Assembly: GCA_964451165.1 (NCBI GenBank)
Contig: CAYVGJ010000002.1
Location: 97,338-161,337, forward strand
DNA from: an uncultured bacterium
GTDB taxonomy: Bacteria; Auribacterota; Auribacteria; Auribacterales; Auribacteraceae
Direction of reading: 5' to 3'
Length of the DNA: 64,000 nt
The notes under the pieces: model-generated
Seen by the model: the letters and a program-made list of their open reading frames with translations, nothing else
What the model was told of the DNA's origin: nothing
Databases searched by the model: none
Shown: piece after piece, positions 20,246 to 38,724 of the stretch
How the letters are laid out: each line of letters opens with the position of its first letter
Position numbering within the stretch: the stretch's first letter is position 1
Program-made: the position numbers and the translations under genes

Positions 20246-21622
20246 TTAATTCAGCTGGTTTGCGGCTAAATTCAGAAGTTTTTTATAATCATTGTGTTCG
20301 CAATAGATTATCACGCAATCATTTTTGTTAAGAGATAATGATAATTGGAAATCGGCATCAACCTTTAAGGATATTTGATTATTTTTATCAAATTCATTAA
20401 TATCGGATCCTTTTATTTTATATTTTATCAATGCCCATTTCAAAAAAGTTTTTGCGAACTCAACAGCATCTTCTCTGGTATCCCATCGTGATATTGAGAT
20501 GTAACCTCGTTTTTCGGGTTTGCCTTTATTCTCGAAAACAATTACAGAATCTCCGTCCCAGCCTTCGGCGGCTTTAACGGCTTCTTCTTTGGGAAGCAAA
20601 AGTTTCAACAAGATTCTGATATTCAGTTCACCCATCACATTCTTGTATATAGGTTTCAGGTTTAAGTCTGAGAATATGTTGTCATTGTCCTGTATTTGCG
20701 GGTAATCCGGTTCATCACGGTTTACAGCGTATTTTTCAAAATGAATTATCTGTTCGGTTGATACCGGCGGATCAAGAAAAACCTGGTTCATTTTTATTTT
20801 TGATTCCGGATCATATAGTTTCGATACAAAATACAAACCTTCGATATATGGAAACAGCATTGATTCCCTGATATATGGAGGAGCTTTATCTAACTCTGCT
20901 TGTTGCATTGCGAAAAACAGGCCGGACAAAATATCGAGCAATATTTCATGGTTTACGTGGTTTAAATAATATTTATCCATGCAAAATGTAGCGTCGCCTT
21001 CTATTAATGCGGTGACTGCCTGTACATGATCATCGTTTTCCAGATTTTCCATACCCATTTTTGAAAGGTTAAAATGTTGATCCTGAATCGCATGAACTAT
21101 TTCATGCGCCAGAAACAAATCTTTTATATTTTTGGTAAAGAATGAACCCGATACAGTAAACAATTCTTTCTCTTTGTAATCGTAAAAGGCGGCAACCTGT
21201 TCACGGTAAACATTAATCAGGATATTTCTAAGGTTGACATCTTTTTCAAGAAAACCGATAGTTTTTAATGCATTTTCCATGTTATGGAATTTATCTTCAG
21301 GGTAAAACTCATTCATTTTTTTTATAATTGTTTCTTTTAACGCGTTCTTATCAATTATGTTGTAATTGATAGGCTTTATTGGGGATAAACCTCTTATCAT
21401 GCTTACATCGGTTTCTATTTTTGAGTATCTCGCAAGCAGTTTTAATTTGCGGTTTTCTTTTTTATAGGAATCTATACTTTTTCTTAATACTTTTTTATCG
21501 CCTTCCGTTTTCGACAGACTTTGCTTTAATCCTTTATTCTCAAAATAAAAGAAAGAACATAAAAAAATTGAAACTCCATATAAGATAAAGTGAACCATAA
21601 ATGTTTTTTTTAGTATTCTCAT
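20246..21622 (-). CDS. Putative membrane-anchored zinc metallopeptidase (gluzincin/peptidase-MA-like)
   Basis: An N-terminal TM helix. HExxH (LAHEIVHAIQDQHF) followed about 25 aa later by ALIEGDATF, a plausible third Glu ligand. No closer family was recognised. Confidence 0.4.
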   Translation of the reverse strand: MRILKKTFMVHFILYGVSIFLCSFFYFENKGLKQSLSKTEGDKKVLRKSIDSYKKENRKLKLLARYSKIETDVSMIRGLSPIKPINYNIIDKNALKETIIKKMNEFYPEDKFHNMENALKTIGFLEKDVNLRNILINVYREQVAAFYDYKEKELFTVSGSFFTKNIKDLFLAHEIVHAIQDQHFNLSKMGMENLENDDHVQAVTALIEGDATFCMDKYYLNHVNHEILLDILSGLFFAMQQAELDKAPPYIRESMLFPYIEGLYFVSKLYDPESKIKMNQVFLDPPVSTEQIIHFEKYAVNRDEPDYPQIQDNDNIFSDLNLKPIYKNVMGELNIRILLKLLLPKEEAVKAAEGWDGDSVIVFENKGKPEKRGYISISRWDTREDAVEFAKTFLKWALIKYKIKGSDINEFDKNNQISLKVDADFQLSLSLNKNDCVIIYCEHNDYKKLLNLAANQLN

Positions 21623-21647
21623 GTGAAACCGGATGATAAAAATTGAT

Positions 21648-21672
21648 TTAACCGATATTCTATATCGGTTAA
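21648..21672 (-). terminator. Candidate intrinsic terminator hairpin downstream of the HIT gene: an 11-bp perfect inverted repeat, TTAACCGATAT-tct-ATATCGGTTAA
   Basis: A perfect 11/11 stem with a 3-nt loop. On the minus-strand RNA a TTTTT run follows after about 6 nt. The stem is AT-rich, so this is weak. Confidence 0.3.
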
Positions 21673-21733
21673 AACTATAATTGTTTATATGATTTATTAA
21701 CAGATTAATAAAAAAATATTAAGTTTAAATAAA

Positions 21734-22075
21734 TCAACCTGGAGGCCATTTGAGAGATCTTGCGCCCAACAGGTGAAAATGAATATGAAACACGGCTTGC
21801 CCTGCGTCAGGACCGCAATTTATAACAACTCTATAACCCGTTTCATTGATTGATTTTTCTTCAGCGAGTTTCGCCGCAACTCGAAGTATATATCCCATCA
21901 ACGAATCGTGTTCTTTATCGAGATCGCTTATAGAGCAGATATGTTCTTTTGGAATTATCAGAATATGAACGGGAGCCTGAGGATGAATATCCTCGAACGC
22001 AAAAACTTTTTCATCTTCATATACTTTCTTCGATGGAATTTCGCCTTTTATAATCTTGCAGAATATACATTCCAT
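21734..22075 (-). CDS. HIT-family (histidine triad) nucleotide hydrolase, HinT-like
   Basis: The N-terminus CIFCKIIKGEIPS and the C-terminal histidine triad HIHFHLLG are present. Confidence 0.8.
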   Translation of the reverse strand: MECIFCKIIKGEIPSKKVYEDEKVFAFEDIHPQAPVHILIIPKEHICSISDLDKEHDSLMGYILRVAAKLAEEKSINETGYRVVINCGPDAGQAVFHIHFHLLGARSLKWPPG

Positions 22076-22086
22076 TTGAAATCTCC

Positions 22087-22650
22087 TTAATTCGCCAATA
22101 TGCTTTGGGCGATAGAATAATAAAAAGTTTCTTTTTTATCTGCGGGCATATTATCGGCCATAAGAACTGCCGAGTATAATTTATGAGAAAAATTAAGTTT
22201 GCTTAAATAATAGTTCATTTGTCTTGCTGAAAACAAATATCCTCTATATATAAATGCTGTTACCCCTTGAAGCAGGATTCCCGCTACCGTAGATATAATT
22301 ACCAGAACAGTACTTTCAATAATGTAATTCGATACTATTATTCCGCTAATAATCAGGACAAATCCGAAAAAGGATATCAATAAAGACATCCGCAAAGATT
22401 TGAAGGCCAATCTTTTGTTTATGATCGAATATTCTTTTAATTCGGCAATGTAATGCTCATAGGATTTTAAAAAATCGCCTCTATTTCCTTCAATCTGTTT
22501 AATAAATACATCGAGTTCTTTAAGAACATTCTCTTCTTCTTTTTTCGATACTTTTTTACTCATGAAAAATAATGAAAATGTAAAAATAGATGCCAGAACT
22601 AAACTTATTATCAATATCGAAATCAAATTTGTAATGTTGGCGATTTCCAT
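22087..22650 (-). CDS. Hypothetical membrane protein (about 4 TM)
   Basis: ORF with hydrophobic segments. No family was recognised. Confidence 0.35.
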   Translation of the reverse strand: MEIANITNLISILIISLVLASIFTFSLFFMSKKVSKKEEENVLKELDVFIKQIEGNRGDFLKSYEHYIAELKEYSIINKRLAFKSLRMSLLISFFGFVLIISGIIVSNYIIESTVLVIISTVAGILLQGVTAFIYRGYLFSARQMNYYLSKLNFSHKLYSAVLMADNMPADKKETFYYSIAQSILAN

Positions 22651-22708
22651 ATTATTTATCCTTATATGTGACGTTTAAATTTATAATGCACAAAGTATAT
22701 ATGTAATG

Positions 22709-24544
22709 TCAATCGCTTTTTGACGTTCGCGAATGTATGTTTTCAATTAACTCAGCGGCTTTTCTATAATGAGGGTTAATCTCAAGGGACTTATATAAAT
22801 ATTTCAGTGCTTCCTGTGTGTTGTTTAACTGTAAATATATTACGCCGAGATTGAAATAACCCATATGGCTTTCAGGGTTCAAGGATATGGCGGATCTGAA
22901 ATTTGCTATTGATTCATCAATCAATTCTTTTTTCCTGTAAAGAAATCCAAGAAAAATATATCCTCTCTCAGATGGATAAAGCGATATGGCTTTCTTGCAT
23001 TCGTTTATCGCTAAATCTATATCGTTTGTCTGAAACGGCGATAATGTTGAAGATGGAATAATGTATTTGAATTTATTGTTGTCTATAATCGATTTATTTT
23101 TCTCATTGTTTCTCAAATAAACCAGCGAGTTGTCATCCCAGAAAACAAGTGACCAGCCGGGATTGTATGCGATTGGTTGTATAGGATCATCCGGAGCTCT
23201 TCTAAATACAACGTAATTGGCGATTATAATATCGATATTATATTTATCGAGATATTTTTCAAAACCGGGTTTTGCCTCAGCAATATTTTCGTATGCCATT
23301 GTTGTCTCGCCTGCGGCTTCAGGCACTCTGCCATCAATGAATACTTTGTAATCCGGATACAGGTTATACGACAGGTACCCGCCCCATTCCCTGAAATTCA
23401 CTATTTTGCCTTCGGGTTTAAATCTTTTCATAAATGATATCACGCCTTCAGGATACATTTTTTTCTCAATACCCAATTTGAAAAGAAGGTTTCTTGAATA
23501 TGCGCCATAAGTAAAAAAAATCAGGAACGATAATAATAAGAGAGCGGGGATGAACTTTAATGATTCAGGAAACCTAAATTTAATCGTTTCTCTCAAGTTC
23601 GGCAAAAGCGATACCATGGTAAAGGCAACGCAAACAGCTGAATAATATTCAAACCTGATTTTTGTTATTGCCATAAAAGTGAAAACAATAAAAGGAAGAA
23701 AAACAGAAAAATTTATTTTCCGGATATTCATTATGGAAATAAAGAAAACAGTTCCCGTAAGAACGATATAAAACCTTGACTTGGAAATTATGATTGGCGC
23801 CCATTCGGAATTTCTTCCGATATATAAATTTGAGTGAGCAAATGAAAATATATGCGTATATATACTGTAAAAATAAGGGTTTACGAAAGTTACAACGAAA
23901 GAAATTAAGAAAACAGAAACAAGATTAAGATCTAATTTTCTTGTTTTTAGATTATCAATAAAATAACCGGTTGTGTACGTTAATAACAGTATTATACCTG
24001 TTAAAAATTCTCCGTGAAGATTAACCCATATCAAAAAAATGAATGGAATAATATATAATAATTTACGGTTAAATGTGTTAGAATAGCCTATCAAAATAAA
24101 AAATAAAATAGGGAACAACATAAACGAAAAAATTAAAGTCCGGCATGAAATCAATCTGTCGGAAACGCAAATAAAAACAAAAAAGCTCAAAAACGCGGAC
24201 CAAAAAATATTTCCGGACAATCTAAAGATCGAACCGAAAATAAAAATAAAAGCTGTCATAATTATGGCTGTTTTAAGGAAAATCACTCCATTAATACCGA
24301 AAAAATGGTTGGTTTTGAAAAAAATTATTGTTGCTAACCATGAATGAATAGTCCATGGATTATGCTGAGGAGAGTTTAGAAAAATATCTTTAGCTGGAAT
24401 GGAATGTGTTTTGATGATATATTCAGCTGTTTTTAGGTGTAACCAGAAATCGTCATCTTTAATTGTGGAAATATTCCATCCTGTTATAAGTATGAATAAA
24501 ACAATGATAAGAACTGTATATAAACAAATTTTAAAAAATTTCAT
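22709..24544 (-). CDS. Polytopic membrane protein with C-terminal TPR repeats (GT-C/PMT-TMTC-like putative glycosyltransferase)
   Basis: About 11 TM helices in the first ~430 aa. An acidic first loop (IKDDDFWLHLKTAEY). The C-terminal ~130 aa have TPR repeats (AISLYPSERGYIFLGFLYRKKEL..., AISLNPESHMGYFNLGVIYLQL..., ALKYLYKSLEINPHY). Confidence 0.45.
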   Translation of the reverse strand: MKFFKICLYTVLIIVLFILITGWNISTIKDDDFWLHLKTAEYIIKTHSIPAKDIFLNSPQHNPWTIHSWLATIIFFKTNHFFGINGVIFLKTAIIMTAFIFIFGSIFRLSGNIFWSAFLSFFVFICVSDRLISCRTLIFSFMLFPILFFILIGYSNTFNRKLLYIIPFIFLIWVNLHGEFLTGIILLLTYTTGYFIDNLKTRKLDLNLVSVFLISFVVTFVNPYFYSIYTHIFSFAHSNLYIGRNSEWAPIIISKSRFYIVLTGTVFFISIMNIRKINFSVFLPFIVFTFMAITKIRFEYYSAVCVAFTMVSLLPNLRETIKFRFPESLKFIPALLLLSFLIFFTYGAYSRNLLFKLGIEKKMYPEGVISFMKRFKPEGKIVNFREWGGYLSYNLYPDYKVFIDGRVPEAAGETTMAYENIAEAKPGFEKYLDKYNIDIIIANYVVFRRAPDDPIQPIAYNPGWSLVFWDDNSLVYLRNNEKNKSIIDNNKFKYIIPSSTLSPFQTNDIDLAINECKKAISLYPSERGYIFLGFLYRKKELIDESIANFRSAISLNPESHMGYFNLGVIYLQLNNTQEALKYLYKSLEINPHYRKAAELIENIHSRTSKSD

Positions 24545-24682
24545 GGATTTTAGTATATATTTGAATTATGTTTTTTTATTTAAAACTTTGTCTAAAAGAT
24601 AATATCTAAATTTAATTATAAATTTCAAAACATAATTTTATGTTTTGTAAAATAATCGGATTTTTTAAGAAAAAGGTGATTT

Positions 24683-27418
24683 ATGAATTTGAAAAAATGT
24701 GTTTTGCTTGTCGCGGCTATATTATTTATTTCAGGTCCGGTATTTTCCAAAGGTGGAGACTCAGATCATGGTATTTCATTGGAAGATTTAAGAGTTCCTG
24801 ACATTAAATTCGATGAAAATCAAATTAAATATGTCGATAAAGTTTTGCCATCGCTTGAAGGCGAATATTTTGTAAAATTAAATTCAGGATTGACCTTATT
24901 GGTTAAAGAGATAGATTTTTCACCCGTTGTATCATGCCGGGTGACAATAAAGGCCGGTTCAATATTTGAAGGCAAATACCTGGGATGCGGGATATCTCAT
25001 TACCTGGAACATATTATTTCCGGCGGAAGCACTGAATTAAGGTCTGAAACCGACAATAACAAAATATTAAAAGAAATCGGAAATGCGAGCAACGCGTCGA
25101 CCAGTTACGATCACACTACCTTTTTTATAGATACAACTGCACAACACTGGGAAAAAGCTGTAAACCTTCTATATTCATATATCGCCAAATGCAAATTCGA
25201 TGAATCGGAAGTGCAAAGAGAAAAAAACGTGATTCTTCAGGAACTTAGAATGAAAGAAAACGAACCGCCAGACAGGTTATGGCAACTATTTGTCTCAACC
25301 GCATACCAGACAGATCCGCTAAGGTATCCGATAATAGGTTATGAGGAATTATTTAAAAATCTGAAGAGAGAAGATCTGGTTAATTATTACAACGAGAGGT
25401 ATCAACCTCAAAACGTGGTTTTTTCTGTTGTAGGCAATATTGATGGAATCAAAGTTATAAATGAACTGATAAACATAACAAAAGATTTTTTACCGAAACA
25501 GGAATTCAGTTATCCACTTATAGCTGAGAACAAGCAGATATCTCCTCGCTGGGCGCAGCAAGTTCATCCGGCATCGAGATTGCCTGCGATGCTGATGGGG
25601 TTCCCTTCAGTATCGATATTTGAGAAAGATCTTTATCCGCTTGATGTCTTAGCGATAATTCTTGGTGATGGACGGACATCAAGGTTGTATAAATCGCTCA
25701 AAGATCAAAAACAACTTGTTCTGTCGGTAAATACATTAAGTTGGACACCATTTACCGGAAAAGGGCAGTTCATTTTCATGCTTGATCTCGATTATAAAAA
25801 TATCGAGCCAACTATTGCGGCAATCAGGGAAGAAATACAAACAATTCAAAATGAAGGTGTGTCACAAAAAGAACTCGAAAGGGCAAAACGAAAAGTTGTA
25901 GCCGAACATATATTCAGCAATCAGAAAACAAGTTCCATATCTTCCGATATGTCATATTGTTTTTTAATAAATGAAGACCCGCATTTTTCGGAAAGATATA
26001 TCGCGCAAATAAAAGAAGTGACATCGGATGATCTGAAAAGAGTCGCGGGAGAATACTTTGATTTCAATAAAAAAACAGTGGCGATAGTAAAACCGCAAGA
26101 AACAAAAGACACAGTAACAACAAGTTCGCAGAAAAAAAGAAGCGAATCCGAAATAGAAAAGATAACTCTCCCTAATGGAGTCAGAATATTGCTGAAAACA
26201 AGCTCGGAGTATCCTCTTGTTGATTATAAATTATTTTTAAACGGCGGTTTACGTTTCGAAAATGAAAATGAATCCGGTGTAAGTAACTTTATGGCGAATA
26301 TGATAACCCGGGGAACAAAAAAACGGACAAAACAACAGATCTCGGAGTTGATAGAAAACATTGGAGGTGCTCTTTCATGCAGTTCGGCAAATAATACTGT
26401 TTCCATCGAATGCTCTGTTTTGTCGGATGATGTAAATACTGGCTATGACGTATTTTCAGATGTAATTCTCAATCCGGATTTTCCAAAAGATGAAATGGAA
26501 AAACTGCGAAAAGAAATTCTTCTTACATTGGAAAAACTTGATGAATCATGGGAAACAGAAATAATGAGATTTCTCGCTAAGAATTTCTATAAGAACCATC
26601 CTTACAGGAATGATATTTTGGGTACAAAAGAATTTGTTTCAAAAGCCGATAGAGGCGATTTGATGAATTTTTACGATAGAATTTTTGTTCCTAAAAATAT
26701 GGTTATCGCGGTATTCGGCAATTTCGACAAAGATAAAATGATTAAAAAACTAAAAGATACTTTCGGGAATCTCAAATCGAAACCACTTGTAAAACCTGAT
26801 ATAAAACCGGAATTCGGCGAAAACTTAAAAGGCGATACAAAAATCGAGAAAATAAGCGATAAGTATTCCGTTTCCATAATGATCGGGTATAAAGGCATGA
26901 GTGTTTTTGACAAAGATAAACCTGCCCTTGATGTGCTCGATTCAGTAATATCTGGTATCGGATATCCATCAGGTTGGTTGCAGGAGAGTTTACGGGGAAA
27001 CGATTCCTCATTGGTTTATATGGTTCATGCTTTTCCGCAATACGGGATCGATGGAGGTTATTTTGCTATTATGAGCCAGACTACGTCTGAAAATTATGAT
27101 AAAGTTATGGGCATAATAAATAAATGCATCAATAAAGCTAAAACGGAAGGTATTACTAAAGCGGAACTTGATACAGGTAAAAACATATGTGTCACAATGA
27201 TGGAAATGGGGCTGGAAACCATGAATAGACAGGCTTATAATGCCGCGTTAAATGAATCTATCGGGCTTGGCTATGACTATACTCAAAAATATCTGGAAGC
27301 AATAAAAAAAGTCACAAAAGAAGATGTGGATAATGCCGCAAAAAAATATTTTGCGAATAGTTTAACCGTGACCGTATTCCCGAAAGATTATAAGAAAAGC
27401 GATAAATCCTCAAAATAG
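24683..27418 (+). CDS. Secreted M16-family (pitrilysin/insulinase-like) zinc peptidase with tandem M16 units
   Basis: A signal peptide. The inverted zinc motif HxxEH (GISHYLEHIISGGS) in the first unit. A second M16-like half (residues ~480-900) lacks the motif, as is typical of a non-catalytic partner half. Confidence 0.75.
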   Translation: MNLKKCVLLVAAILFISGPVFSKGGDSDHGISLEDLRVPDIKFDENQIKYVDKVLPSLEGEYFVKLNSGLTLLVKEIDFSPVVSCRVTIKAGSIFEGKYLGCGISHYLEHIISGGSTELRSETDNNKILKEIGNASNASTSYDHTTFFIDTTAQHWEKAVNLLYSYIAKCKFDESEVQREKNVILQELRMKENEPPDRLWQLFVSTAYQTDPLRYPIIGYEELFKNLKREDLVNYYNERYQPQNVVFSVVGNIDGIKVINELINITKDFLPKQEFSYPLIAENKQISPRWAQQVHPASRLPAMLMGFPSVSIFEKDLYPLDVLAIILGDGRTSRLYKSLKDQKQLVLSVNTLSWTPFTGKGQFIFMLDLDYKNIEPTIAAIREEIQTIQNEGVSQKELERAKRKVVAEHIFSNQKTSSISSDMSYCFLINEDPHFSERYIAQIKEVTSDDLKRVAGEYFDFNKKTVAIVKPQETKDTVTTSSQKKRSESEIEKITLPNGVRILLKTSSEYPLVDYKLFLNGGLRFENENESGVSNFMANMITRGTKKRTKQQISELIENIGGALSCSSANNTVSIECSVLSDDVNTGYDVFSDVILNPDFPKDEMEKLRKEILLTLEKLDESWETEIMRFLAKNFYKNHPYRNDILGTKEFVSKADRGDLMNFYDRIFVPKNMVIAVFGNFDKDKMIKKLKDTFGNLKSKPLVKPDIKPEFGENLKGDTKIEKISDKYSVSIMIGYKGMSVFDKDKPALDVLDSVISGIGYPSGWLQESLRGNDSSLVYMVHAFPQYGIDGGYFAIMSQTTSENYDKVMGIINKCINKAKTEGITKAELDTGKNICVTMMEMGLETMNRQAYNAALNESIGLGYDYTQKYLEAIKKVTKEDVDNAAKKYFANSLTVTVFPKDYKKSDKSSK

Positions 27419-27427
27419 AATGAAAAT

Positions 27428-27805
27428 ATGGATTCGAAAAGAATATTAATAGAAAAAATATTAAAAAAACTTTCTAATTCTCCTTTTCGAAAAAGATTCG
27501 TACTTGGCACAAATGATATAATATATTATAATTCTAAAGGTTATGATGTAATTAAAGAACATGCGTGCCATTTTGTAAGAGAGAGAATTGCGCCTGAAAA
27601 AATAGTAAATGACGGTAAACAGACACCGATGAAAAAACATCCTGTATTTATTGCTCAGCACGCTACTGCGACCTGTTGCAGGGGATGTATAGAAAAATGG
27701 CATGGAATAGAAAAAAATAAACAACTCAACGAAGATGAAATTAATTATATTGTGGATATTATAATGTTATGGATACTTACCCGGATAAAAACTTGCCCGA
27801 ATTAA
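27428..27805 (+). CDS. DUF4186-like small protein
   Basis: ...VFIAQHATATCCRGCIEKWHGIEKNKQL... matches my recollection of the conserved core of DUF4186 (about 120 aa). Confidence 0.4.
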   Translation: MDSKRILIEKILKKLSNSPFRKRFVLGTNDIIYYNSKGYDVIKEHACHFVRERIAPEKIVNDGKQTPMKKHPVFIAQHATATCCRGCIEKWHGIEKNKQLNEDEINYIVDIIMLWILTRIKTCPN

Positions 27806-28170
27806 ATAATGCAATTGATTTGAAATTGATTTTCGACGAAATCAATCGGAACTATTTCGATAATAAACTTGAATGCAGGGTGATTTTCGGCAGGAAATAT
27901 CATTCGCCGCGCACAAGATGTATCAGGCTTGGAAGTTTCAATTGTGCCACAAATACAATACGAATCAACCCGGATCTGAATGATCTCGATATCCCCCATT
28001 TTTTGATAAAGTATATTATGTACCATGAAATGACTCACGCATGGTGTTATCAGAATCATTCCCGCCTTCGCCACAGAGGGCCATTTCAGCTTAAGGAAAA
28101 AGAATTTACTGATTTTAAAATCGCGCGGAAATGGTTGAGGGATAATAAAAAACTTTTTTTCAAGAGGTAA
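27769..28170 (+). CDS. SprT-like zinc metalloprotease domain protein
   Basis: The SprT-like layout: FDEINRNYFDNKLE..., then HExxH (YIMYHEMTHAW). It overlaps the upstream gene by 37 nt. Confidence 0.55.
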   Translation: MDTYPDKNLPELNNAIDLKLIFDEINRNYFDNKLECRVIFGRKYHSPRTRCIRLGSFNCATNTIRINPDLNDLDIPHFLIKYIMYHEMTHAWCYQNHSRLRHRGPFQLKEKEFTDFKIARKWLRDNKKLFFKR

Positions 28171-28172
28171 AA

Positions 28173-28973
28173 ATGAATATTGTGTCGGCAAGCAGGCGAA
28201 CAGATATACCTGCTTTTTACGCGCAATGGTTTATGGATGGTTTAAAAAGAGGGGCGATCGAGTTTATTCATCCGTATTCAGGGCAACGATTGAATGTATC
28301 TTTAAAACCAAACGACGTTATCGCTTTTGTTTTCTGGTCAAAAAATTTCTGCGGGTTTATCGATCATCTCGAGTGGATCAGAAAAGATTATGCATGCGTA
28401 TTTCATTACACGATAAATGAATATCCTCTTGAAATAGAAGGCAATATACCGCTTCTTACCAGAAGGTTGGATTCGTTTAAAAAAATATCGGATATGTTTT
28501 CGCCTGATAACATTATTTGGCGGTATGATCCTATATTATTAACAAAAAATTTCAATATGGATTATCATCTCGCAAAATTTACTGAAATTTCAGGTATTCT
28601 CAAAGGATACACTAAAAAATGCTACACAAGTTTTGTTCAGCTTTACGGAAAGAATAAGGTAATCCTTAGAAATTCAGGAGTAGACGAAAATGAGTCCCAA
28701 AATACAATAAAACTTGATCTAATTAGCAAACTAAAAGGTATTTGTGAATCAAATACGATGGAATTGCTTAATTGTTGTTATCCTTTGCTCAAAGAAGCGG
28801 GTGTGCCTTCCGGAAGCTGTATAGACAAGAAATTGATAGAAAAAATAACAGGTTTAAACCTTAAAGAAATAAAAAAAGCGCCGACAAGAAAATCGTGCGG
28901 ATGTTATAAAAGTATAGATATTGGGACATATTCCACCTGCAAGGGCAAATGTCTTTACTGTTACGCACGATGA
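28173..28973 (+). CDS. DUF1848-like protein with a C-terminal Cys cluster that includes a CxxxCxxC
   Basis: The N-terminus SASRRTDIPAFYAQWFMDGL...VIAFVFWSKN...IIWRYDPI matches my recollection of DUF1848. The C-terminus is ...CGCYKSIDIGTYSTCKGKCLYCYAR (C-x3-C-x2-C). Confidence 0.5.
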   Translation: MNIVSASRRTDIPAFYAQWFMDGLKRGAIEFIHPYSGQRLNVSLKPNDVIAFVFWSKNFCGFIDHLEWIRKDYACVFHYTINEYPLEIEGNIPLLTRRLDSFKKISDMFSPDNIIWRYDPILLTKNFNMDYHLAKFTEISGILKGYTKKCYTSFVQLYGKNKVILRNSGVDENESQNTIKLDLISKLKGICESNTMELLNCCYPLLKEAGVPSGSCIDKKLIEKITGLNLKEIKKAPTRKSCGCYKSIDIGTYSTCKGKCLYCYAR

Positions 28974-28982
28974 AAGGGAATT

Positions 28983-30044
28983 ATGGCAAAAACAGATTTT
29001 GTTATACCAATTTTTATTCCTCATGATGGTTGCCCATTTCAATGTATTTTCTGCAACCAGAACAGTATAACCGGAACCAACAGTTCACCGGGTGAAAACG
29101 AAGTCAGGAATATAATAGAGAACTATCTTACCACTATTTCCAACAGGTCAAAAAGAGTTTATATCGGTTTTTACGGTGGAAGTTTTACAGGTATAGACAG
29201 GAAACTTCAGGAAAAGTATCTGAGTATTGCTTCACAATATGTAAAAAGCGGAATAATAAATGGAATACGTTTATCAACAAGGCCGGATTTCATTAACGAT
29301 GAAATACTTTCATTTCTAAAAGATCATGGAGTTTCTCAAATTGAGCTTGGAATTCAATCGTTTGATGATGATGTACTGCGAATATCAAAACGAGGTTATA
29401 CATCAATACAAGCGATAGACGCATCTATTCTTATAAGAAGACGAGGCTTTTTGCTTGGTCACCAGATGATGGTTGGTTTACCCGGAGATTCGTGGAACAA
29501 AACAGTTTTGAGCGCGCTTACATCGATAAATTTAAATCCCGATATGGTTCGGGTATATCCATTGCTGGTTATGAAGGATACTCCTCTTGCGCAAATGACA
29601 GACTATAAACCGTTGTCTTTTGATGAAGCGATTGAGCGCGCAAGATTCCTTGTAGAGTTATATGATAAAAATAATATAAAGATTCTCAGAGTAGGATTAC
29701 ATCCTCCAAAAGACGCATCAAATATATTGGATGGCCCATACCACCCGGCATTTAAATTTGTTGTGAAATCACGAATCTGGGGCGCTTTTTTAAGAAAAAT
29801 ATCGGGATGTGAAGGCAGAAATCCAGATCAGATATTTGTGTCCGAGGAAAATTATGATTTTTTGATTGGATATAAAAGCGAAAACACAAAGTTTCTACCT
29901 CCAAAACAAAAAATAATTAAATCTTCATGGATTGAGCCGGATCATCTTTTGGTTAAATTCGGGGATAAATCAAAATTTTTATCCAGGCTGAAGTTCAGAG
30001 ACGATTATTTGTATTTTAAAATATCAGATCATTTATGGGATTAA
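28983..30044 (+). CDS. Radical SAM protein (ELP3/HemN-like superfamily), function unknown
   Basis: A CxxxCxxC near the N-terminus (FIPHDGCPFQCIFCNQ), a GGSFTG glycine-rich SAM motif, and a TIM-barrel-like length (353 aa). Confidence 0.65.
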   Translation: MAKTDFVIPIFIPHDGCPFQCIFCNQNSITGTNSSPGENEVRNIIENYLTTISNRSKRVYIGFYGGSFTGIDRKLQEKYLSIASQYVKSGIINGIRLSTRPDFINDEILSFLKDHGVSQIELGIQSFDDDVLRISKRGYTSIQAIDASILIRRRGFLLGHQMMVGLPGDSWNKTVLSALTSINLNPDMVRVYPLLVMKDTPLAQMTDYKPLSFDEAIERARFLVELYDKNNIKILRVGLHPPKDASNILDGPYHPAFKFVVKSRIWGAFLRKISGCEGRNPDQIFVSEENYDFLIGYKSENTKFLPPKQKIIKSSWIEPDHLLVKFGDKSKFLSRLKFRDDYLYFKISDHLWD

Positions 30045-30048
30045 GGCA

Positions 30049-30783
30049 ATGAAAAACAAAGGTATGGTTCTTGTAAGCAGTGATTTCCCATCAGCGATGA
30101 AGAACTGTCTCGTATCTGATGGGTGGGAGGCTGTCAATGTCCCGTTTTGCGATCAGGTTATGCCTTCAATAGGAGGACATCCGGAACTTCAGGTATTCGT
30201 TATTGATCAACAGGAAATTATCGTTCACCCTGATATTCCTAATTCATTTCTTGAGACAATTAAGAGAAAATTCTCGCGCATTATTGTTGGCAACAAACAT
30301 TTGTCTAAAGAATACCCATATGATATTGCTTATAATGGAAAGATAATAGGAGATACTTTCTTTCATAAACTTGAAAATACCGATCCGATATTGCTAAAAA
30401 GTTTGACTCTTGCGGGTTATGAGTTTGCCGATGTAAATCAGGGTTATAGCGGATGTTCTATACTCAATATAGGAAATGAAGCTTTGATTACAGCAGATGC
30501 AGGGATTGCTCAATCAGCTGATATACTTGGTTTTGATGTTTTGCTGATAACACCTGGATCTATCGATTTACACGGTTTAAACTACGGGTTTATCGGAGGT
30601 GCCTGCGCATGGGATGGTCTCGAGACAGTTTATTTTTGCGGTAACGTAAAACATCATCCTGACGGCGCAAAGATAACCGAATTTATTCATCAATTCGGAT
30701 ACAAGACAGTCAATTTGAGTGAAAACAGATTAACTGATTACGGATCTCTTTTATTTATCGCGAATAATCATAGTATCTTGTAA
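30049..30783 (+). CDS. Hypothetical protein, possibly pentein-fold (amidinotransferase/DDAH/arginine-deiminase-like)
   Basis: The near-C-terminal GFIGGACAWDG resembles the GGG-x-(H)C catalytic Cys motif of pentein enzymes, and GHPELQ lies upstream. This rests on weak motif-level similarity only. Confidence 0.3.
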   Translation: MKNKGMVLVSSDFPSAMKNCLVSDGWEAVNVPFCDQVMPSIGGHPELQVFVIDQQEIIVHPDIPNSFLETIKRKFSRIIVGNKHLSKEYPYDIAYNGKIIGDTFFHKLENTDPILLKSLTLAGYEFADVNQGYSGCSILNIGNEALITADAGIAQSADILGFDVLLITPGSIDLHGLNYGFIGGACAWDGLETVYFCGNVKHHPDGAKITEFIHQFGYKTVNLSENRLTDYGSLLFIANNHSIL

Positions 30784-32795
30784 ATATTGAATCTTTGATT
30801 CGAATACAGCAGTTTGAATCTCTTTAATGTTTCGGGCAAATATATTGATCTTGCCCTGATAGTACTTTTGCCAAGTTCAGTAGGAATACCGTTTTGCTGG
30901 AATAAAGCCGGATAATTATATTCCGCATAAAGAGCATATAATTGAGTACGTGATACATATTTATCAACAAAATATATACCCATGCCGAGATTTTTGCAGT
31001 ATTGATAGAATTTCTCTTCGTCATTTTGAAGAAGTAGCTGACTCATCTCAACAAGCCTTTTATGAACAAGTTTGCTCTCAAGTAGCCCATCGAGAAACGT
31101 AGCGCTTTGCGCGTAAGTTTGGATAACATAACCGTAACTCCAGTAACTGATAACCGGAAGACGATCCGGGTTGAGTTTTTCAAGTTTTATAAGGGCATCC
31201 TCAAGATGGGGGCGTAAATCAAGCCTTAGTTTTGTCATATAAACTCCGGTTTTCCAACCTGATCCGACAATTAAAGTTGTACATAAAACCATTAATGCCG
31301 CGATAGCCATATTCCGTAAAGGAGAATTTTTTAAAAAATTTATTGTGCGATCGACAGATATTGCTCCGGCTAATGCTACAAATATAGAAAGAAGTACTTT
31401 ATTGCGGTAAAACATAAGTGTCAGGAAAAATATTGAAAAGAAAAATACAGCGATAATTAATTCACCAATAGAAATTTTATCTTTTTTGTTTCTGAAAATT
31501 AGTATGGATAAGGGATATAAGAAAATAAATATCCCGCCCCACGAACACATATCCCATTTGAAGATATCTTTTAATGGGACAGAGGAAAGTTCAGCCGTAT
31601 TTATAAAAAGAATATTCTCAATACCGGTGATCTGACCTATACCGAGTTTTAAAAGAAGAACCTTAATAAATGATTCGTAACCTGTAGATAAATGAAGCAT
31701 CGGAATAAATAAGACAAGTATAAACGGAACCATAAGATAAAATGGATCGAATTTGAAGTTTTTCTCTTTATTCCACCACTTTGTTAACAGAGTTGATATT
31801 GCCAATCCTGTAATAAGCATTCCATTGTGAGAGAAGATATAGCGTTGCGAAGATAGGAAATCAAAACCAAGAAAACTTATAGCAAGCCCTCCAAAAAGAA
31901 AAGAAAAGGGGATTACTATGTTGCGATCAGCCCGTTTTAAAAAGACTATCAGTAAAAATATAATGCTGTAAAGAGTTGGGAATAAAAGCGATATTCTCCA
32001 TGTCCCGACAGAAAGCAACATAAAAAATGCTGAAATAATGCTGTAAATATAGCATTTTTTATCATCTTTCTCATCCATAGCTTTTATGAAAAAATAAATA
32101 TTGAATAGAAGGAAAAATACGCCGGGACCTTCATAGCGGTATCTGGTAGCCAATGTCCGTACCAGATTGCCAGGCATTACAGCCGCGAGTGCTGCGCCAA
32201 TAAACGAAATATAATCTTTGCCTGTTATTCTCCGGAGAATAAAATAAATAGGAATCATAGTCATAGCGCACAAAATTGCGTAAAATAGCTCCACAGATCT
32301 CTGAACTGATCCATCTGAAAACACGTGATAAATTTTATAAAATCCTGCACCCAGATAATATAAAACAACAGGGAGGTTTTCCGGAATCGGTTTGCCTTCC
32401 GGATACCATGACATCTTATCAATCGCCGGGACATGTCCTGTTTTTAGAACTTCTTCGGTCATTCTTAAATGAAAAGCGTAATCATAATCCAACATGGTGT
32501 TGGGGTATTGATATATTGGGTACATTCTCCAGTAATACCCGAAATAAAATAACAAAATCAAACCGGCTAGAATAAGGGCAAATTTCAGGTATTTATTTAA
32601 TACGAAAGAACTATCTTTTTTGCTCAGATCAGGCTGGATATCCGCTGTTTTCTCTATAGCTTCGTAATCGGAGATAATCTTTTCTATATATTTTACGTTT
32701 ACGCCAAGTTGTTTAGCAATTGAATTCAAAGATTGCTTTTTATAATTCTCTATAACGTATTTCTTTTGGTTTTCTGAAAGCTGTTTGTCTGTCAT
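30768..32795 (-). CDS. GT-C membrane glycosyltransferase with an STT3/PglB/AglB-like WWDYG-type motif (candidate oligosaccharyltransferase). It has an N-terminal ~60 aa soluble HTH-like segment.
   Basis: About 13 TM helices. Then PVISYWSYGYVIQTYAQSATFLDG; compare WWDYGY-x-I...T-x-VDG in STT3/PglB. A C-terminal ~150 aa soluble domain follows. The N-terminus LNSIAKQLGVNVKYIEKIISDY looks helix-turn-helix. Strong SD AAGGGAAGGA. Confidence 0.45.
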   Translation of the reverse strand: MTDKQLSENQKKYVIENYKKQSLNSIAKQLGVNVKYIEKIISDYEAIEKTADIQPDLSKKDSSFVLNKYLKFALILAGLILLFYFGYYWRMYPIYQYPNTMLDYDYAFHLRMTEEVLKTGHVPAIDKMSWYPEGKPIPENLPVVLYYLGAGFYKIYHVFSDGSVQRSVELFYAILCAMTMIPIYFILRRITGKDYISFIGAALAAVMPGNLVRTLATRYRYEGPGVFFLLFNIYFFIKAMDEKDDKKCYIYSIISAFFMLLSVGTWRISLLFPTLYSIIFLLIVFLKRADRNIVIPFSFLFGGLAISFLGFDFLSSQRYIFSHNGMLITGLAISTLLTKWWNKEKNFKFDPFYLMVPFILVLFIPMLHLSTGYESFIKVLLLKLGIGQITGIENILFINTAELSSVPLKDIFKWDMCSWGGIFIFLYPLSILIFRNKKDKISIGELIIAVFFFSIFFLTLMFYRNKVLLSIFVALAGAISVDRTINFLKNSPLRNMAIAALMVLCTTLIVGSGWKTGVYMTKLRLDLRPHLEDALIKLEKLNPDRLPVISYWSYGYVIQTYAQSATFLDGLLESKLVHKRLVEMSQLLLQNDEEKFYQYCKNLGMGIYFVDKYVSRTQLYALYAEYNYPALFQQNGIPTELGKSTIRARSIYLPETLKRFKLLYSNQRFNIYKIL

Positions 32796-32977: not shown

Positions 32978-34621
32978 ATGAAAAAGAAAGAGCGAATTAT
33001 TAAAATATTTCATACGGTTTCTTCCGATTTAAATGATGAAAAAGATATTGCCAGTGAAATAGTTAAAAAAATAAATAAAGATAGGGCGAAAAGTCTTCAT
33101 TCAAAATTCGAAATAACTTTTTCCAGTATAGATGAGGAATTACCAGCCGGAGATCAGAATACCCAAATTAATAAAATGATTCAGGAATGTGATATATTTA
33201 TTTTCGGGTTATGGAAAAAATGGAATCTTTACGCATGGAAAATATTATCACCGTTTGAAGAAGAATTTGAAATAGCAAGAAATAAATTTCAAGTTCAAGG
33301 TAAGCCACTTGTAATATGTTATTTTAAAGAAATACCTGACGATATGATTTGCGACCCGGGGGAGCAATTGAAAAAGGTTCTGGAATTTAGGACCAATATA
33401 GAATCATCAAAAAAAGTACTTTATTATAATTACGAAAAGGTTACTCAGTTTTCAAGTATGCTTTATGAATTTCTATGGGAATATCTCGATAACAAAAGCT
33501 ATGATGATATTCTTAATGAAGAGAATGCAAAACGGTTGATCGACATTCCCGATGAAATAATACAGAAAATCAATTTATTTCATAAAAAATATATGGAAAC
33601 AGAGTTTACAGGAAAAGGTGAGCTTTCCAAGACATCCATGGAATTTGCTATGGATGCTTTCAGATGTATAAAGGAATATAAATTTACTCTTGCGCAGGAA
33701 TGTTTCATAAAATCGCTCGAAATGGAGGAAAATCCTTATGTACTTGACGCATATGGTTTAATGCTGATTCAACTGGATTATTTCTTTAAAGCTGAAGAAA
33801 AATTTAACCGGTTGTTACAGATATCCAACTCATACGAAGACGGTATGTTGTTAAAATCTTACGCATATAATAATCTCGGTAATATGTACGAGGTTCTGGA
33901 AGATCTCGATAATGCTTCTAAAATGTATAAAAAAGCGCTTGATATTGACTTACAGCTCAAAAGAAAAGAAGGGATCATATCCAATTATAATAATCTCGGT
34001 ATTATCTACAGAAAACAAAATGAATTTGATAAAGCCGAAGCAATGTATAAAAAAGCTCTTGATGCCGATCTCCATACTGAAAGTACACAAGCTACGGCAT
34101 CCGCTTATGGAAATCTCGGCAATATTTATTTGCTGAAAGATGAACTTGATAAAGCCGAAACAATGTATAAAAAAGCGCTTGATATAGATATGAATCTTTG
34201 GTGTAAAGAAGAAATCGTTACCGATTGTTTTAATTTGGGCAATGTGTATACAAAACGCGGTGATTTTTTGAATGCTGAGGAGATGTATGATAAATCGCTG
34301 GAATTAAGTTCGGAGAATTGGATAAAAAAGGAAATAGCGTCAAATTATTGTTACCTGGCGCGAAGATATGGTACAGACGGTAATCTTGATCGGTCTGAAT
34401 CGTTATATAATAAGGCGCTTGGGTTATCGAGGGAACTCGGCAGTAAAAAAGGGATGGCTTCAATTTATCTTAATCTTGGGATTTTATACGAACACAAAGG
34501 GGATTTTGGCAAAACCAAAGAATTTTGGATTAAATCAGAGGAATATTACAATCAGATGGGAAATGAAAAAGAGGTTAATAAATTAAGGACCTGGATCAGG
34601 GATCTGGACATAAATGAATGA
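32978..34621 (+). CDS. DUF4062 (TIR/deoxyribosyltransferase-like Rossmann domain) N-terminal domain fused to TPR_12-type tetratricopeptide repeats. The start is placed at the ATG at 32978; the track begins at a GTG at 32972.
   Basis: The N-terminus IKIFHTVSSDLNDEKDIASEIVKKINKD...FSSIDEELPAGDQNTQINKMIQECDIFIFGLWKKWN...SPFEEEFEIARNKFQVQGKPLVICYFKEIP follows the DUF4062 consensus as I recall it. About 7 40-aa TPR repeats follow (A[EK]xMYKKALDIDL...), visible also as ~120-bp periodic DNA repeats. Confidence 0.5.
   Translation: MKKKERIIKIFHTVSSDLNDEKDIASEIVKKINKDRAKSLHSKFEITFSSIDEELPAGDQNTQINKMIQECDIFIFGLWKKWNLYAWKILSPFEEEFEIARNKFQVQGKPLVICYFKEIPDDMICDPGEQLKKVLEFRTNIESSKKVLYYNYEKVTQFSSMLYEFLWEYLDNKSYDDILNEENAKRLIDIPDEIIQKINLFHKKYMETEFTGKGELSKTSMEFAMDAFRCIKEYKFTLAQECFIKSLEMEENPYVLDAYGLMLIQLDYFFKAEEKFNRLLQISNSYEDGMLLKSYAYNNLGNMYEVLEDLDNASKMYKKALDIDLQLKRKEGIISNYNNLGIIYRKQNEFDKAEAMYKKALDADLHTESTQATASAYGNLGNIYLLKDELDKAETMYKKALDIDMNLWCKEEIVTDCFNLGNVYTKRGDFLNAEEMYDKSLELSSENWIKKEIASNYCYLARRYGTDGNLDRSESLYNKALGLSRELGSKKGMASIYLNLGILYEHKGDFGKTKEFWIKSEEYYNQMGNEKEVNKLRTWIRDLDINE
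33900..34500 (+). repeat. Intragenic ~120-bp periodic nucleotide repeats encoding TPR units (not CRISPR)
   Basis: Near-identical 26-30-nt cores (gataaagccgaa[ag]caatgtataaaaaagc[gt]cttgat...) at about 33922, 34044 and 34164, spaced 120 nt (40 aa) apart inside the TPR ORF. Confidence 0.7.
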
Positions 34622-35177
34622 CAAAATAAACGAATTTCAATACCGCTATAAATATCCACGCCCGATGGTAACTGTTGACATAGCATTGTTTTCCATTATT
34701 GATTCTGAACCCGCAATTCTTCTTATAAAAAGAGGAGGAAATACTTTTTTCGGATATTGGGCATTACCGGGCGGATTTGTTGATATTGAGGAAGATATAA
34801 AGCAAACGGCACCAAGAGAACTTGAAGAAGAAACAGGTTTAAAGTTCGATCAGTTATATCAGATATTTTGCGTAGGTACTCCCGGAAGAGACCCTCGCGG
34901 TAGAACAATAAGCGTTGTTTATTCGGGTTTTTATGAAGGCAACGAAAAACCGTCAGGTAAATCGGATGCGAAAGAAGCTCAATGGTTCAATATTAATGAA
35001 ATACCGGAGCAATTGGCATTTGATCATTGGGATGTGATTGTTACAGTAATAAAAAGATGGATATATGAATTCAATAATCCATCTCTGGATCCATGCCTGA
35101 TGAAATATAAAGATTCTTTTATAGCCGCTACAAAAAAATACGCAGATGTATCACTCGGATTCGGGTTAAAGTTATGA
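34614..35177 (+). CDS. NUDIX hydrolase
   Basis: The Nudix box GYWALPGGFVDIEEDIKQTAPRELEEETGL (GX5EX7REUXEEXGU). There is an 8-nt overlap with the upstream TPR gene. Confidence 0.75.
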   Translation: MNDKINEFQYRYKYPRPMVTVDIALFSIIDSEPAILLIKRGGNTFFGYWALPGGFVDIEEDIKQTAPRELEEETGLKFDQLYQIFCVGTPGRDPRGRTISVVYSGFYEGNEKPSGKSDAKEAQWFNINEIPEQLAFDHWDVIVTVIKRWIYEFNNPSLDPCLMKYKDSFIAATKKYADVSLGFGLKL

Positions 35178-36618: not shown

Positions 36619-37143
36619 ATGATAAAAACTGAAATAGGCAATTCGGCTATTGAATTGATTATCGGCGATATTACTGAACTTACGGTTGATGCGATTGTAA
36701 ACGCGGCGAACTCTGCGTTAAAAATGGGGGGCGGTGTTGCCGGAGCGATACTCGAAAAAGGTGGTTATTCAATTCAGCGGGAATGTGATAAAATCGGGAG
36801 AATATCTGTTGGTACAGCAGTAATTACCAGTTCAGGTAATCTTAATGCTAAATTCATTATACATGCTGTCGGCCCAAGAATGGGTGAAGGCGACGAGGAT
36901 GAGAAACTGCTTAACGCAACATTGAATTCACTAAAAATTGCTGAACAAAACGCAATCCAAACTATAGCGTTTCCCGCGATAAGTACGGGCATTTTCGGGT
37001 ATCCGATAGATAGATGCGCCTCAATTATGCTTAATACAACCGCAGGATATATCAAAAGCCGCAACATAATAAAAAAAGTAATTTTTTGCCTGTACGATTC
37101 AAGATCCTTTAAAATATTTCAGCATGAGTTGGAAAAAATTTAA
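36619..37143 (+). CDS. Macro domain protein (ADP-ribose / O-acetyl-ADP-ribose processing, YmdB/MacroD-like). The start is placed at the ATG at 36619.
   Basis: IGDITELTVDAIVNAANSALKMGGGVAGAILEKGG...CDKIGRISVGTAVITSSGNLNAKFIIHAVGP... is canonical macro domain. Confidence 0.75.
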   Translation: MIKTEIGNSAIELIIGDITELTVDAIVNAANSALKMGGGVAGAILEKGGYSIQRECDKIGRISVGTAVITSSGNLNAKFIIHAVGPRMGEGDEDEKLLNATLNSLKIAEQNAIQTIAFPAISTGIFGYPIDRCASIMLNTTAGYIKSRNIIKKVIFCLYDSRSFKIFQHELEKI

Positions 37144-37221: not shown

Positions 37222-38724
37222 ATGAGAATTTTGTTTATATACCCGAACTTATATGCCCAAATCGGATTCAATTATGGAGTCGCGTTTCTGTCCGCTGTTT
37301 TAAAGAAAGCAGGGCATGAGACAAAACTTCTAAATATAAACGATAAACTCGGTTTTTATCTTGATCACGATAGAATTAAAAAGGAAGTTCTTAATTTTGA
37401 TCCCGAGCTTATTGCATTTTCTGTTGTTACCAATCAATATCAATTCGCCAAAAACATTGCTTCAGAGATAAGAAAATATCATGACGCTCCTATATTATGT
37501 GGTGGAATACACCCTACCATGGATCCGGAAGGCGTACTCAATTCAGGCGAATTCGATTTCGTGTGCATGGGAGAAGGTGAAGGCGCGCTATGTGATTTGG
37601 CGGGAAACATCAATTCTACTGAAGAAATCAAAAAAATAAAAAATATATGGATGAAGGACAACGGTTTAATTATAAAGAATCCGATGCGAGAATTGGTTGA
37701 CCTTTCTACCTTACCGCGCAAAGATTACGAAATATTTGATTTCCAAAAGATGATTGACGCAAAAGACGGATGGGTCGGGCTTATGACATCGCGCGGATGC
37801 CCGTTCAGATGCACATATTGCCTCAATCATAAAATAGTCAAGATGTATCAGGATGACCTGCAGACAAAAAAAATCAACTATATGCGGTGCCATTCCGTGG
37901 AAGACGTCATAAGCGAAATAGATTTTGTCCTGAGAAACTATGACCGCATAAAAATGTTTATTTTTGATGACGACCTGTTTACTTTCAATAAAGAATATGT
38001 TGAAGATTTTTGCAGGCAGTACAAAAAATATTTCAGGGTGCCTTTTGTATGTAATGCTCATGTAAAGGTTTTTGATGATTCTATCGCCCAGGGGTTGAAA
38101 GATGCCGGTTGCCAAATTGTCAAGTTTGGGCTGGAAAGCGGGTCAGATAGGGTCCGGTCTCAGATAATGCGCAGGTTTATGAAAAACGAGGATATCGAAA
38201 AGGCTTTTGCGTCAGCGGAAAAAGCGGGCCTGCACAGTTCCGCGTTTGTCATGATGGGATTGCCTTCGGAATCCGATGAGGAATTGCAGGAAACCATAGA
38301 TCTTCTCGGTAGAATTAAACCGGGAAGGTTCCGTTGGGCGATTTTTTTCCCGTTCATTAATACTGAAGCGTACGATATAACAAAAAATTTAGGGTTGATC
38401 AACGAAGAAAAGATCAATTCACTCGCCAATTTTACTGAAGAAAGTTGTTTAAACCTTTCGGATCAGGTTTACAGGAAAGTCAAATGCATGCAGAAAATTT
38501 TCCCATGGTATGTAAATGCTTCCTCAAATCTTGAGGTAGCACCTTTATATAAGAATCTGGTTGAAATTATTGAGAATTTATCTGAAGATGAATGGGTTAA
38601 TATAAAAGATAATTTGCGCCGGATCGATGAAGATTTGTCAAAAGTGCTGGATTCAAAGGGATGTACTCATTACAGAATAAAATACAATAGCTTTACAGGA
38701 GTCAGAAGCGATTGGATAGATTAA
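37222..38724 (+). CDS. B12-binding-domain radical SAM protein
   Basis: An N-terminal cobalamin-binding Rossmann-like domain (MRILFIYPNLY...AFLSAVLKKAGHETKLL). The radical SAM cluster motif GLMTSRGCPFRCTYCLNH, 500 aa. It is the first large gene of the LPS-core operon. Confidence 0.75.
   Translation: MRILFIYPNLYAQIGFNYGVAFLSAVLKKAGHETKLLNINDKLGFYLDHDRIKKEVLNFDPELIAFSVVTNQYQFAKNIASEIRKYHDAPILCGGIHPTMDPEGVLNSGEFDFVCMGEGEGALCDLAGNINSTEEIKKIKNIWMKDNGLIIKNPMRELVDLSTLPRKDYEIFDFQKMIDAKDGWVGLMTSRGCPFRCTYCLNHKIVKMYQDDLQTKKINYMRCHSVEDVISEIDFVLRNYDRIKMFIFDDDLFTFNKEYVEDFCRQYKKYFRVPFVCNAHVKVFDDSIAQGLKDAGCQIVKFGLESGSDRVRSQIMRRFMKNEDIEKAFASAEKAGLHSSAFVMMGLPSESDEELQETIDLLGRIKPGRFRWAIFFPFINTEAYDITKNLGLINEEKINSLANFTEESCLNLSDQVYRKVKCMQKIFPWYVNASSNLEVAPLYKNLVEIIENLSEDEWVNIKDNLRRIDEDLSKVLDSKGCTHYRIKYNSFTGVRSDWID

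Follow-up and report, generated by a model that had tools for sequence, protein, structure and literature searches.

A run of six genes in a Candidatus Auribacterota-type genome and its conserved pair, an Elp3/MnmL-like radical SAM protein and a pentein-fold DUF6873 protein

Do five tightly packed genes of an uncultured bacterium serve one pathway, or do they only share a stretch of chromosome? The question is raised by positions 27428-30783 of a 64,000-nucleotide (nt) stretch of contig CAYVGJ010000002.1 (hereafter the window), where five open reading frames (ORF1 to ORF5) follow each other on the + strand. An earlier note, made from the sequence letters, had taken them for one operon and suggested that they form a single pathway of nucleic-acid repair or modification, or of modification of a small molecule or peptide. 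All five ORFs proved to be genuine genes, and the genome is a compact one of the Candidatus Auribacterota type. The explanation that we favour overall, with somewhat better than even confidence, is a patchwork operon in which only ORF4 and ORF5, a radical S-adenosylmethionine (SAM) protein (rSAM) and a DUF6873 protein, form a conserved unit, one that may act on RNA. The five genes are as follows (aa, amino acids):

27428-27805, + strand: ORF1, a DUF4186 protein of 125 aa from the family of E. coli YneG; a variable passenger gene.
27769-28170, + strand: ORF2, a minimal SprT/YgjP-like zincin of 133 aa with HEMTH at residues 86-90; lineage-specific.
28173-28973, + strand: ORF3, a DUF1848 protein of 266 aa with a radical-SAM-type barrel and CxxxCxxC at the extreme C-terminus.
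28983-30044, + strand: ORF4, an Elp3/MnmL-like radical SAM protein of 353 aa with C17/C21/C24; first half of the conserved module.
30049-30783, + strand: ORF5, a DUF6873 protein of 244 aa with the pentein/GME fold; second half of the conserved module.

Comparison with relatives showed that the gene set holds together over only a short evolutionary distance. Identical proteins are present on several metagenome contigs (numbered here L001 and onward), and the full order M16-DUF4186-SprT-DUF1848-rSAM-DUF6873, which begins with an M16 peptidase gene upstream of ORF1, is kept in the window, in L001 and in L005/L006 (DUF1848 100% and 69% identical), followed by a convergent STT3-like gene. In L007 and L008, where DUF1848 is 46-47% identical, the order is M16-TPR-SprT-DUF1848-rSAM-DUF6873, with a TPR gene in the DUF4186 position; the SprT ORF of L008 was recovered by searching ORFs with the window proteins. 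Two further relatives were found via the rSAM anchor: L174 (51% identical) carries M16-TPR-SprT-rSAM-DUF6873 and no DUF1848, and L173 (50% identical) carries M16-rSAM-DUF6873-STT3, without DUF4186, SprT or DUF1848. There is one M16...rSAM-DUF6873 frame with four fillings, namely DUF4186-SprT-DUF1848, TPR-SprT-DUF1848, TPR-SprT and nothing. The place of DUF4186 is thus held by a TPR gene in L007, L008 and L174 and is empty in L173, and the SprT-like gene occurs in three of the four architectures (L005-L008 and L174) and is missing in L173. Because the filling varies among relatives, we regard DUF4186, SprT and DUF1848 as a variable slot and rSAM-DUF6873 as the constant part.

The five-gene set is complete only where DUF1848 is at least 69% identical, that is, among the closest relatives in Candidatus Auribacterota; a relative with a 46%-identical DUF1848 belongs to a cluster to which NCBI gives that same label. 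The earlier note had staked its proposal on synteny of the five genes in related genomes. They do stand together in the closest relatives, but the set is broken up at about 50% identity and was not found in 160 anchored loci elsewhere. Each of ORF1 to ORF3 is a widespread gene that lacks a fixed partner and that in this lineage sits in a slot between the M16 and rSAM genes, and we consider it quite probable that what we see is a patchwork operon around a single conserved pair.

That pair is also found in other phyla. In the Auribacterota contigs L001, L005-L008, L173 and L174 the rSAM and DUF6873 genes are direct neighbours, either overlapping slightly or separated by a short gap. An Omnitrophota contig (L175) carries dnaJ-yacP-maf-rSAM-DUF6873 with a 4-nt overlap, the Omnitrophota-type L157 carries dus-maf-rSAM-DUF6873, and the two genes are also adjacent in L156. 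On a Bacteroidota-type contig (L176) the rSAM gene adjoins DUF6873, on a Bacteroidota contig (L172) the two are parted by one opposite-strand gene, and in L169 and L170 rSAM is again next to or fused with DUF6873. The linkage reaches the level of a single polypeptide. Among the best 120 ORF4 homologues, P0323 (560 aa) and P0328 (572 aa) combine Radical_SAM, Radical_SAM_C and DUF6873 in one chain; both can be aligned with ORF5 along the entire pentein domain and retain the cysteine of QGYxxC. Contigs of two separate samples encode P0323, and the two fusion proteins, 53% identical over their full length, represent a diverged clade. Occurrence in two samples, 53% identity and complete domains together show that the fusion has been kept in evolution and did not arise in assembly. 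In both fusions the pentein domain lies C-terminal to Radical_SAM_C, a position comparable to that of the acetyl-CoA-binding KAT domain, which Elp3 carries C-terminal to Radical_SAM_C. The genes therefore make up a conserved two-gene module by adjacency in several phyla as well as by fusion, and a functional link between ORF4 and ORF5, as far as gene order and domain architecture can tell, is supported. In the literature searched we found no mention of DUF6873 or of a radical SAM protein paired with a pentein.

ORF4 itself was readily placed. It matches PF04055 Radical_SAM (70.2 bits against a cut-off of 29.5, 3e-19) and PF16199 Radical_SAM_C (49.5 against 31.9, 4.7e-13) in Pfam, and CPFQCIFC near its N-terminus provides C17/C21/C24, which puts it in the radical SAM superfamily and upholds the earlier description of a bona fide member. 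Its best NCBIfam matches are MnmL/YtqA (TIGR01212), with 73.7 bits against a cut-off of 180, and Elp3 (TIGR01211), with 73.3 against 350. Because the former score lies so far below its cut-off, ORF4 is placed in a subfamily other than MnmL, one that numbers thousands of members and has no assigned function. In fact none of the five proteins reached an NCBIfam cut-off, so that none has a named equivalog. The nearest solved relatives of ORF4 by sequence are Elp3 proteins, and over its 353 aa Pfam detects only Radical_SAM plus Radical_SAM_C, with no KAT/GNAT acetyl-CoA-binding domain. These matches place ORF4 in the Elp3/MnmL branch of radical SAM enzymes, as a member without the KAT domain.

Elp3, the radical SAM/KAT enzyme of cm5U formation at tRNA U34 (PDB 5L7J, 6IA8), shares both radical SAM domains with ORF4, whereas the partner of ORF4 is a pentein-fold protein and not a KAT domain that binds acetyl-CoA. 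MnmL/YtqA/YhcC have the same two-domain architecture as ORF4, likewise without a KAT domain, and no DUF6873 partner for MnmL or YhcC is described in the literature searched. According to the abstracts of the relevant papers, YhcC and MnmL act in the synthesis of mnm5s2U in tRNA and are wobble-uridine enzymes. A literature search on KAT-less Elp3 proteins next to rnc returned nothing relevant. The strain represented by L001, 99.6% identical to the window over 6.1 kb, has GAA in place of the rSAM stop codon TAA (L001 6052-6093; window 30042-30044), which lengthens its rSAM protein by 13 residues to 366 aa and makes it overlap the DUF6873 start.

ORF5 belongs to DUF6873 (PF21778), matched at 223.3 bits against 27 (3.4e-66) over model positions 1-228 of 228, and shows the five-fold beta-beta-alpha-beta propeller of the pentein/GME fold. 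The earlier note had called it pentein-like on the strength of a GG-x-C motif. The fold stands but the motif does not: the column of the supposed catalytic cysteine (C186) reads GGA[C/S/T/A/G] in the alignment, and the invariant cysteine is C136, in QGYxKC. The alignment further showed H44, Y89, P90, N96, Q131-G132-Y133, T148, D150, G180-A185 and D230 to be invariant, and D46 and H203 nearly so. Among members of the pentein/GME superfamily (DDAH, amidinotransferases, arginine and agmatine deiminases) DUF6873 is set apart by this cysteine, which lies in mid-sequence and not in the C-terminal position. No sequence similarity to any solved pentein was detectable in searches of the PDB with the single sequence and with a profile. 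Of the proteins structurally closest to DUF6873, the enzymes use arginine, methylarginine, agmatine and similar guanidino compounds as substrates, and the non-enzymatic pentein matches include eIF6 and RESC5, which bind ribosomes or RNA complexes.

The DUF6873 family comprises about 2,700 clusters at 50% identity. On Clostridia-type contigs (L089-L168) DUF6873 is directly followed by a YtxC-family gene, identified by Pfam, in 42 of 80 loci, and in 27 of the 80 a gene of about 640 aa comes after it, read as thrS by eye only. This conserved DUF6873-ytxC neighbourhood seems to have drawn no earlier comment. A separate protein, P0455 (449 aa), has DUF6873 at residues 4-233 and a class-I SAM-dependent methyltransferase domain at about 277-386, and represents a second type of DUF6873 fusion to a SAM-using enzyme.

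What would the pair do? An RNA role is suggested because the nearest characterised families of ORF4, Elp3 and MnmL/YtqA, are tRNA enzymes, because RNA-related genes (rnc, Dus, Maf and YacP) are found as neighbours in other phyla, because DUF6873 stands beside ytxC and a thrS-like gene on Clostridia-type contigs, and because one DUF6873 protein shares its chain with a class-I SAM methyltransferase. In the scheme that we propose, the [4Fe-4S]/SAM domain of ORF4 would make a 5'-deoxyadenosyl radical and with it activate a C-H bond of an RNA nucleoside, tRNA being the most plausible substrate, in the manner of Elp3 and MnmL/YhcC, and DUF6873 would bind, activate or process a second substrate or intermediate via a putative central pocket formed by C136, H44/D46, N96, D150, H203 and D230. 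We hold action of the pair on RNA to be a possibility with appreciably less than an even chance. A little more speculative still is the specific form of this idea, in which ORF4 and DUF6873 would constitute an undescribed two-component, sometimes single-chain, RNA-modifying enzyme whose pentein replaces the KAT domain and supplies or processes another group, possibly of the amidino/guanidino type.

Several points weigh against the reading that we favour. The linkage between rSAM and DUF6873 is not universal: in 78 of the 80 DUF6873-anchored metagenome loci (Clostridia-type) no rSAM gene lies within 8 kb, and in Acetivibrio the rSAM gene follows fab genes and rnc with no DUF6873 within 6 kb, so that the linkage is lineage-dependent. 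ORF4 stays under the cut-off of every named NCBIfam model. The D230-x-G-[S/G/T] column of DUF6873 contains no cysteine, so the usual C-terminal catalytic cysteine of penteins is apparently missing. RNA-related neighbours are only suggestive as a pointer to RNA function. Finally, co-transcription of the six genes from M16 to DUF6873 is no more than probable.

The three genes of the variable slot have histories of their own. ORF3 matches DUF1848 (PF08902) at 279.1 bits against 30.5 (5.9e-83), and in an alignment of 20 diverse proteins the C-terminal CKGKCLYC is invariant (C256/C260/C263), in agreement with the earlier assignment of this family and motif. Four more cysteines, C201, C216, C242 and C244, are invariant in the same alignment and suggest a second metal or Fe-S site. 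The best fold match of DUF1848 is spore photoproduct lyase (SplB, PDB 4FHC), although the match extends to the radical SAM superfamily in general and includes Mmp10. DUF1848 differs from the SplB family in the place of its motif, which is at the extreme C-terminus instead of close to the N-terminus, and in the four extra invariant cysteines; it gave no sequence-level match to any PDB chain and no match to the Pfam Radical_SAM model, and it does not qualify as a member of the spore photoproduct lyase family. We predict it to be a spore-photoproduct-lyase-like enzyme of radical SAM fold with a C-terminal cluster motif. The family is very large (more than 7,700 matches), and some members bear the JGI tag 'DNA repair photolyase'.

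Our survey outside the lineage took in 80 DUF1848 loci, drawn from reference genomes that span about 20 phyla; every ORF up to 8 kb away was searched with the proteins of the window and with small profiles of the lineage. None of the 80 has DUF4186, an SprT-like gene, DUF6873 or a close ORF4 relative in that range. The only radical SAM genes near these loci are distant ones, several kb off. Adjacent to DUF1848 we found four unrelated chance HExxH ORFs and no SprT-like neighbour. When the neighbours were clustered, no family appeared in more than 8 of the 80 loci, most of the recurrences being due to spurious ORFs of high GC content. On this evidence DUF1848 has no habitual partner.

The other two slot genes bear out the DUF4186 and SprT-like assignments of the earlier note in Pfam, with unequal margins. 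ORF1 is a full-length DUF4186 protein (PF13811; 160.5 bits against a gathering threshold of 25, 1.6e-47). Like it, E. coli YneG is a DUF4186 protein by annotation (PMC11502571); the genomic contexts are unrelated, and neither has an assigned function. DUF4186 appeared in none of the 160 loci anchored on DUF1848 or DUF6873, and in the literature searched both DUF4186 and DUF1848 are mentioned only incidentally. ORF2 passes the SprT-like model marginally (PF10263; 31.2 bits against 25.6, 2e-7), stays under the cut-off of the Pfam YgjP-like model at 21.7 bits, and falls far short of the NCBIfam SprT equivalogs NF003421 and NF003339 (20.2 against 175 and 15.7 against 113 bits), so that it is not SprT proper. 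With SprT, Spartan and YgjP-like zincins it shares HExxH, but it has only 133 aa and no detected DNA-binding or zinc-ribbon module. A SprT profile built from four lineage members found no copy in L009-L168, and searches of the PDB by sequence with DUF1848, DUF4186 and SprT gave no usable matches.

It remains to ask what the tight packing itself means. The spacing described before was reproduced exactly, all five genes lying on the + strand with a 37-nt overlap between ORF1 and ORF2 and then gaps of 2, 9 and 4 nt. The run does not start at 27428, however, since the gene of the M16 peptidase ends 9 nt upstream of ORF1, which makes six co-directional genes. Two features upstream of the five genes belong here:

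24545-24682, no strand: a divergent intergenic region of 138 nt, from the gene map.
24683-27418, + strand: an M16 (insulinase-type) peptidase of 911 aa with tandem units; first gene of the co-directional run.

According to a simple gene map, coding sequence fills 94% of the window, co-directional genes are separated by a median of 6 nt, and at 22 of the 37 co-directional junctions the distance is 10 nt or less. The five ORFs are probably co-transcribed with the M16 gene, and the earlier reading of the spacing as a sign of one unit fits to that extent, but because so many junctions of the window are equally short, the spacing says nothing about shared function. Where 94% of the sequence is coding, genes that overlap and point the same way can be functionally unrelated, and as a five-gene system the finding is ordinary. 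The region at 24545-24682 would be the only non-coding gap big enough for a promoter of the whole run from M16 to DUF6873. A scan of 24300-31200 with promoter and terminator consensus patterns gave 30 and 7 sites, no more than expected from shuffled sequence (27.4 and 4.0), and none is claimed; Rfam had no match in 24000-31500.

The M16 protein contains Peptidase_M16 and Peptidase_M16_C in two copies each, and its N-terminus (MNLKKCVLLVAAILFISGPVFS) looks signal-peptide-like by eye. Its best NCBIfam matches lie below cut-off (YfmH, 160 against 250 bits; YfmF, 132 against 285) and belong to proteins associated with the 5-aminopentanol modification of EF-P. The gene is present upstream of the cluster in L001, L005-L008, L173 and L174, always upstream of rSAM-DUF6873 in this lineage, and absent from the rSAM-DUF6873 loci examined in other phyla. 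M16 as a functional partner, whether for peptide maturation or for EF-P modification, was rejected on account of the sub-threshold YfmH/YfmF matches, the signal-peptide-like N-terminus and the lack of an M16 gene outside the lineage.

How do other explanations fare against these data? That all five genes serve one pathway, of nucleic-acid repair or modification or of small-molecule or peptide modification, would account for their co-directional, tight arrangement and for their staying together where DUF1848 is 69% identical; a repair theme could also be seen in the resemblance of DUF1848 to spore photoproduct lyase and in the known link of SprT-like proteases to DNA-protein crosslink repair. 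Against this, the set splits at about 50% identity, none of the 80 DUF1848 loci has another member and 78 of the 80 DUF6873 loci lack the rSAM gene, and the tight spacing is normal here and joins the genes just as closely to an M16 peptidase that looks secreted. A single nucleic-acid pathway is therefore not supported, the one-pathway reading appears largely refuted by the comparative data, and we consider it very improbable. A narrower version, in which SprT-like and DUF1848 proteins, with or without DUF4186, form a separate, lineage-specific sub-module of DNA-damage repair beside rSAM-DUF6873, does slightly better and is still improbable. SprT and DUF1848 genes do adjoin or overlap in the window, in L005/L006 and in L007/L008, and the best fold match of DUF1848 is a DNA repair enzyme, in keeping with the JGI label; but L174 has SprT without DUF1848, no SprT-like neighbour occurs at the 80 DUF1848 loci, and the fold match covers the radical SAM superfamily as a whole.

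The main rival accepts the rSAM-DUF6873 pair as real and gives it another target, either a protein, for instance at the side chain of arginine, or a free metabolite of the guanidino or amidino type. The guanidino substrates of the enzymes structurally closest to DUF6873 would suit such a role, some radical SAM enzymes such as Mmp10 modify arginine in proteins, and the clues to an RNA role are indirect. The families closest to ORF4 (Elp3 and MnmL/YtqA/YhcC) are tRNA enzymes, however, and both the neighbours rnc, dus, maf, yacP and thrS-like (the last by eye) and the ribosome- or RNA-complex-binding eIF6 and RESC5 speak against this alternative, which we regard as unlikely, if the most serious one. 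Maturation of a peptide by the M16 peptidase and a radical SAM enzyme, as in clusters for ribosomally synthesized and post-translationally modified peptides (RiPPs), is far less credible: such enzymes do co-occur in some peptide-maturation clusters (PqqF/PqqE) and the M16 protein has a weak PqqF match, yet all junctions are 10 nt or less and leave no space for a precursor gene, ORF4 is Elp3-like and not of the SPASM type, the M16 N-terminus resembles a signal peptide, and outside the lineage no M16 gene accompanies the pair. Least credible of all is a defence system related to defence-associated reverse transcriptases (DRT)/UG25 with DUF1848 as accessory to the reverse transcriptase. UG25 reverse transcriptases are described as associated with a DUF1848 cluster (PMC9226505), and ORF3 does match the PADLOC model RTasDUF1848 (2.5e-46), but less well than the general Pfam DUF1848 model (156 against 279 bits); PADLOC gave no significant defence-model match for the other four proteins. 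Such a system at this locus was refuted, as there is no reverse transcriptase gene in or near the cluster.

Some genes around the run were also recorded. Upstream of M16, a block on the - strand (window 20246-24544) holds a DUF8575-like gene, a HIT-family gene, a 187-aa gene without assigned family and a TPR membrane protein; much of it stays near the M16 gene in relatives (L006, L173 and L174), so that the synteny of this lineage extends far beyond the five ORFs. An STT3/PMT_2-like membrane protein of 675 aa (30768-32795, - strand), resembling bacterial oligosaccharyltransferases, is convergent with ORF5 and shares 16 nt with its 3' end, a position conserved in L001, L002, L005, L007, L008 and L173. 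Further downstream and unrelated are a NUDIX gene (34614-35177, + strand), a Macro-domain gene (36619-37143, + strand) and a gene for a B12-binding radical SAM protein (37222-38724, + strand), the latter two identified through precomputed Pfam annotation on L001, which is nearly identical to the window.

On the reading that we favour, a patchwork around one conserved pair, DUF6873 is now linked, through neighbouring genes and fused proteins, with a radical SAM subfamily of the Elp3/MnmL type that has no assigned function. If the enzyme proposed for the pair exists, it would point to a nucleoside modification so far assigned to no gene, in Clostridia, Bacteroidota, Omnitrophota and Auribacterota, and an RNA role, if true, could give genes to an orphan RNA modification or reveal new chemistry of the pentein fold. 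Members of the families occur in cultivable Clostridia and Bacteroidota, which makes the prediction directly testable.

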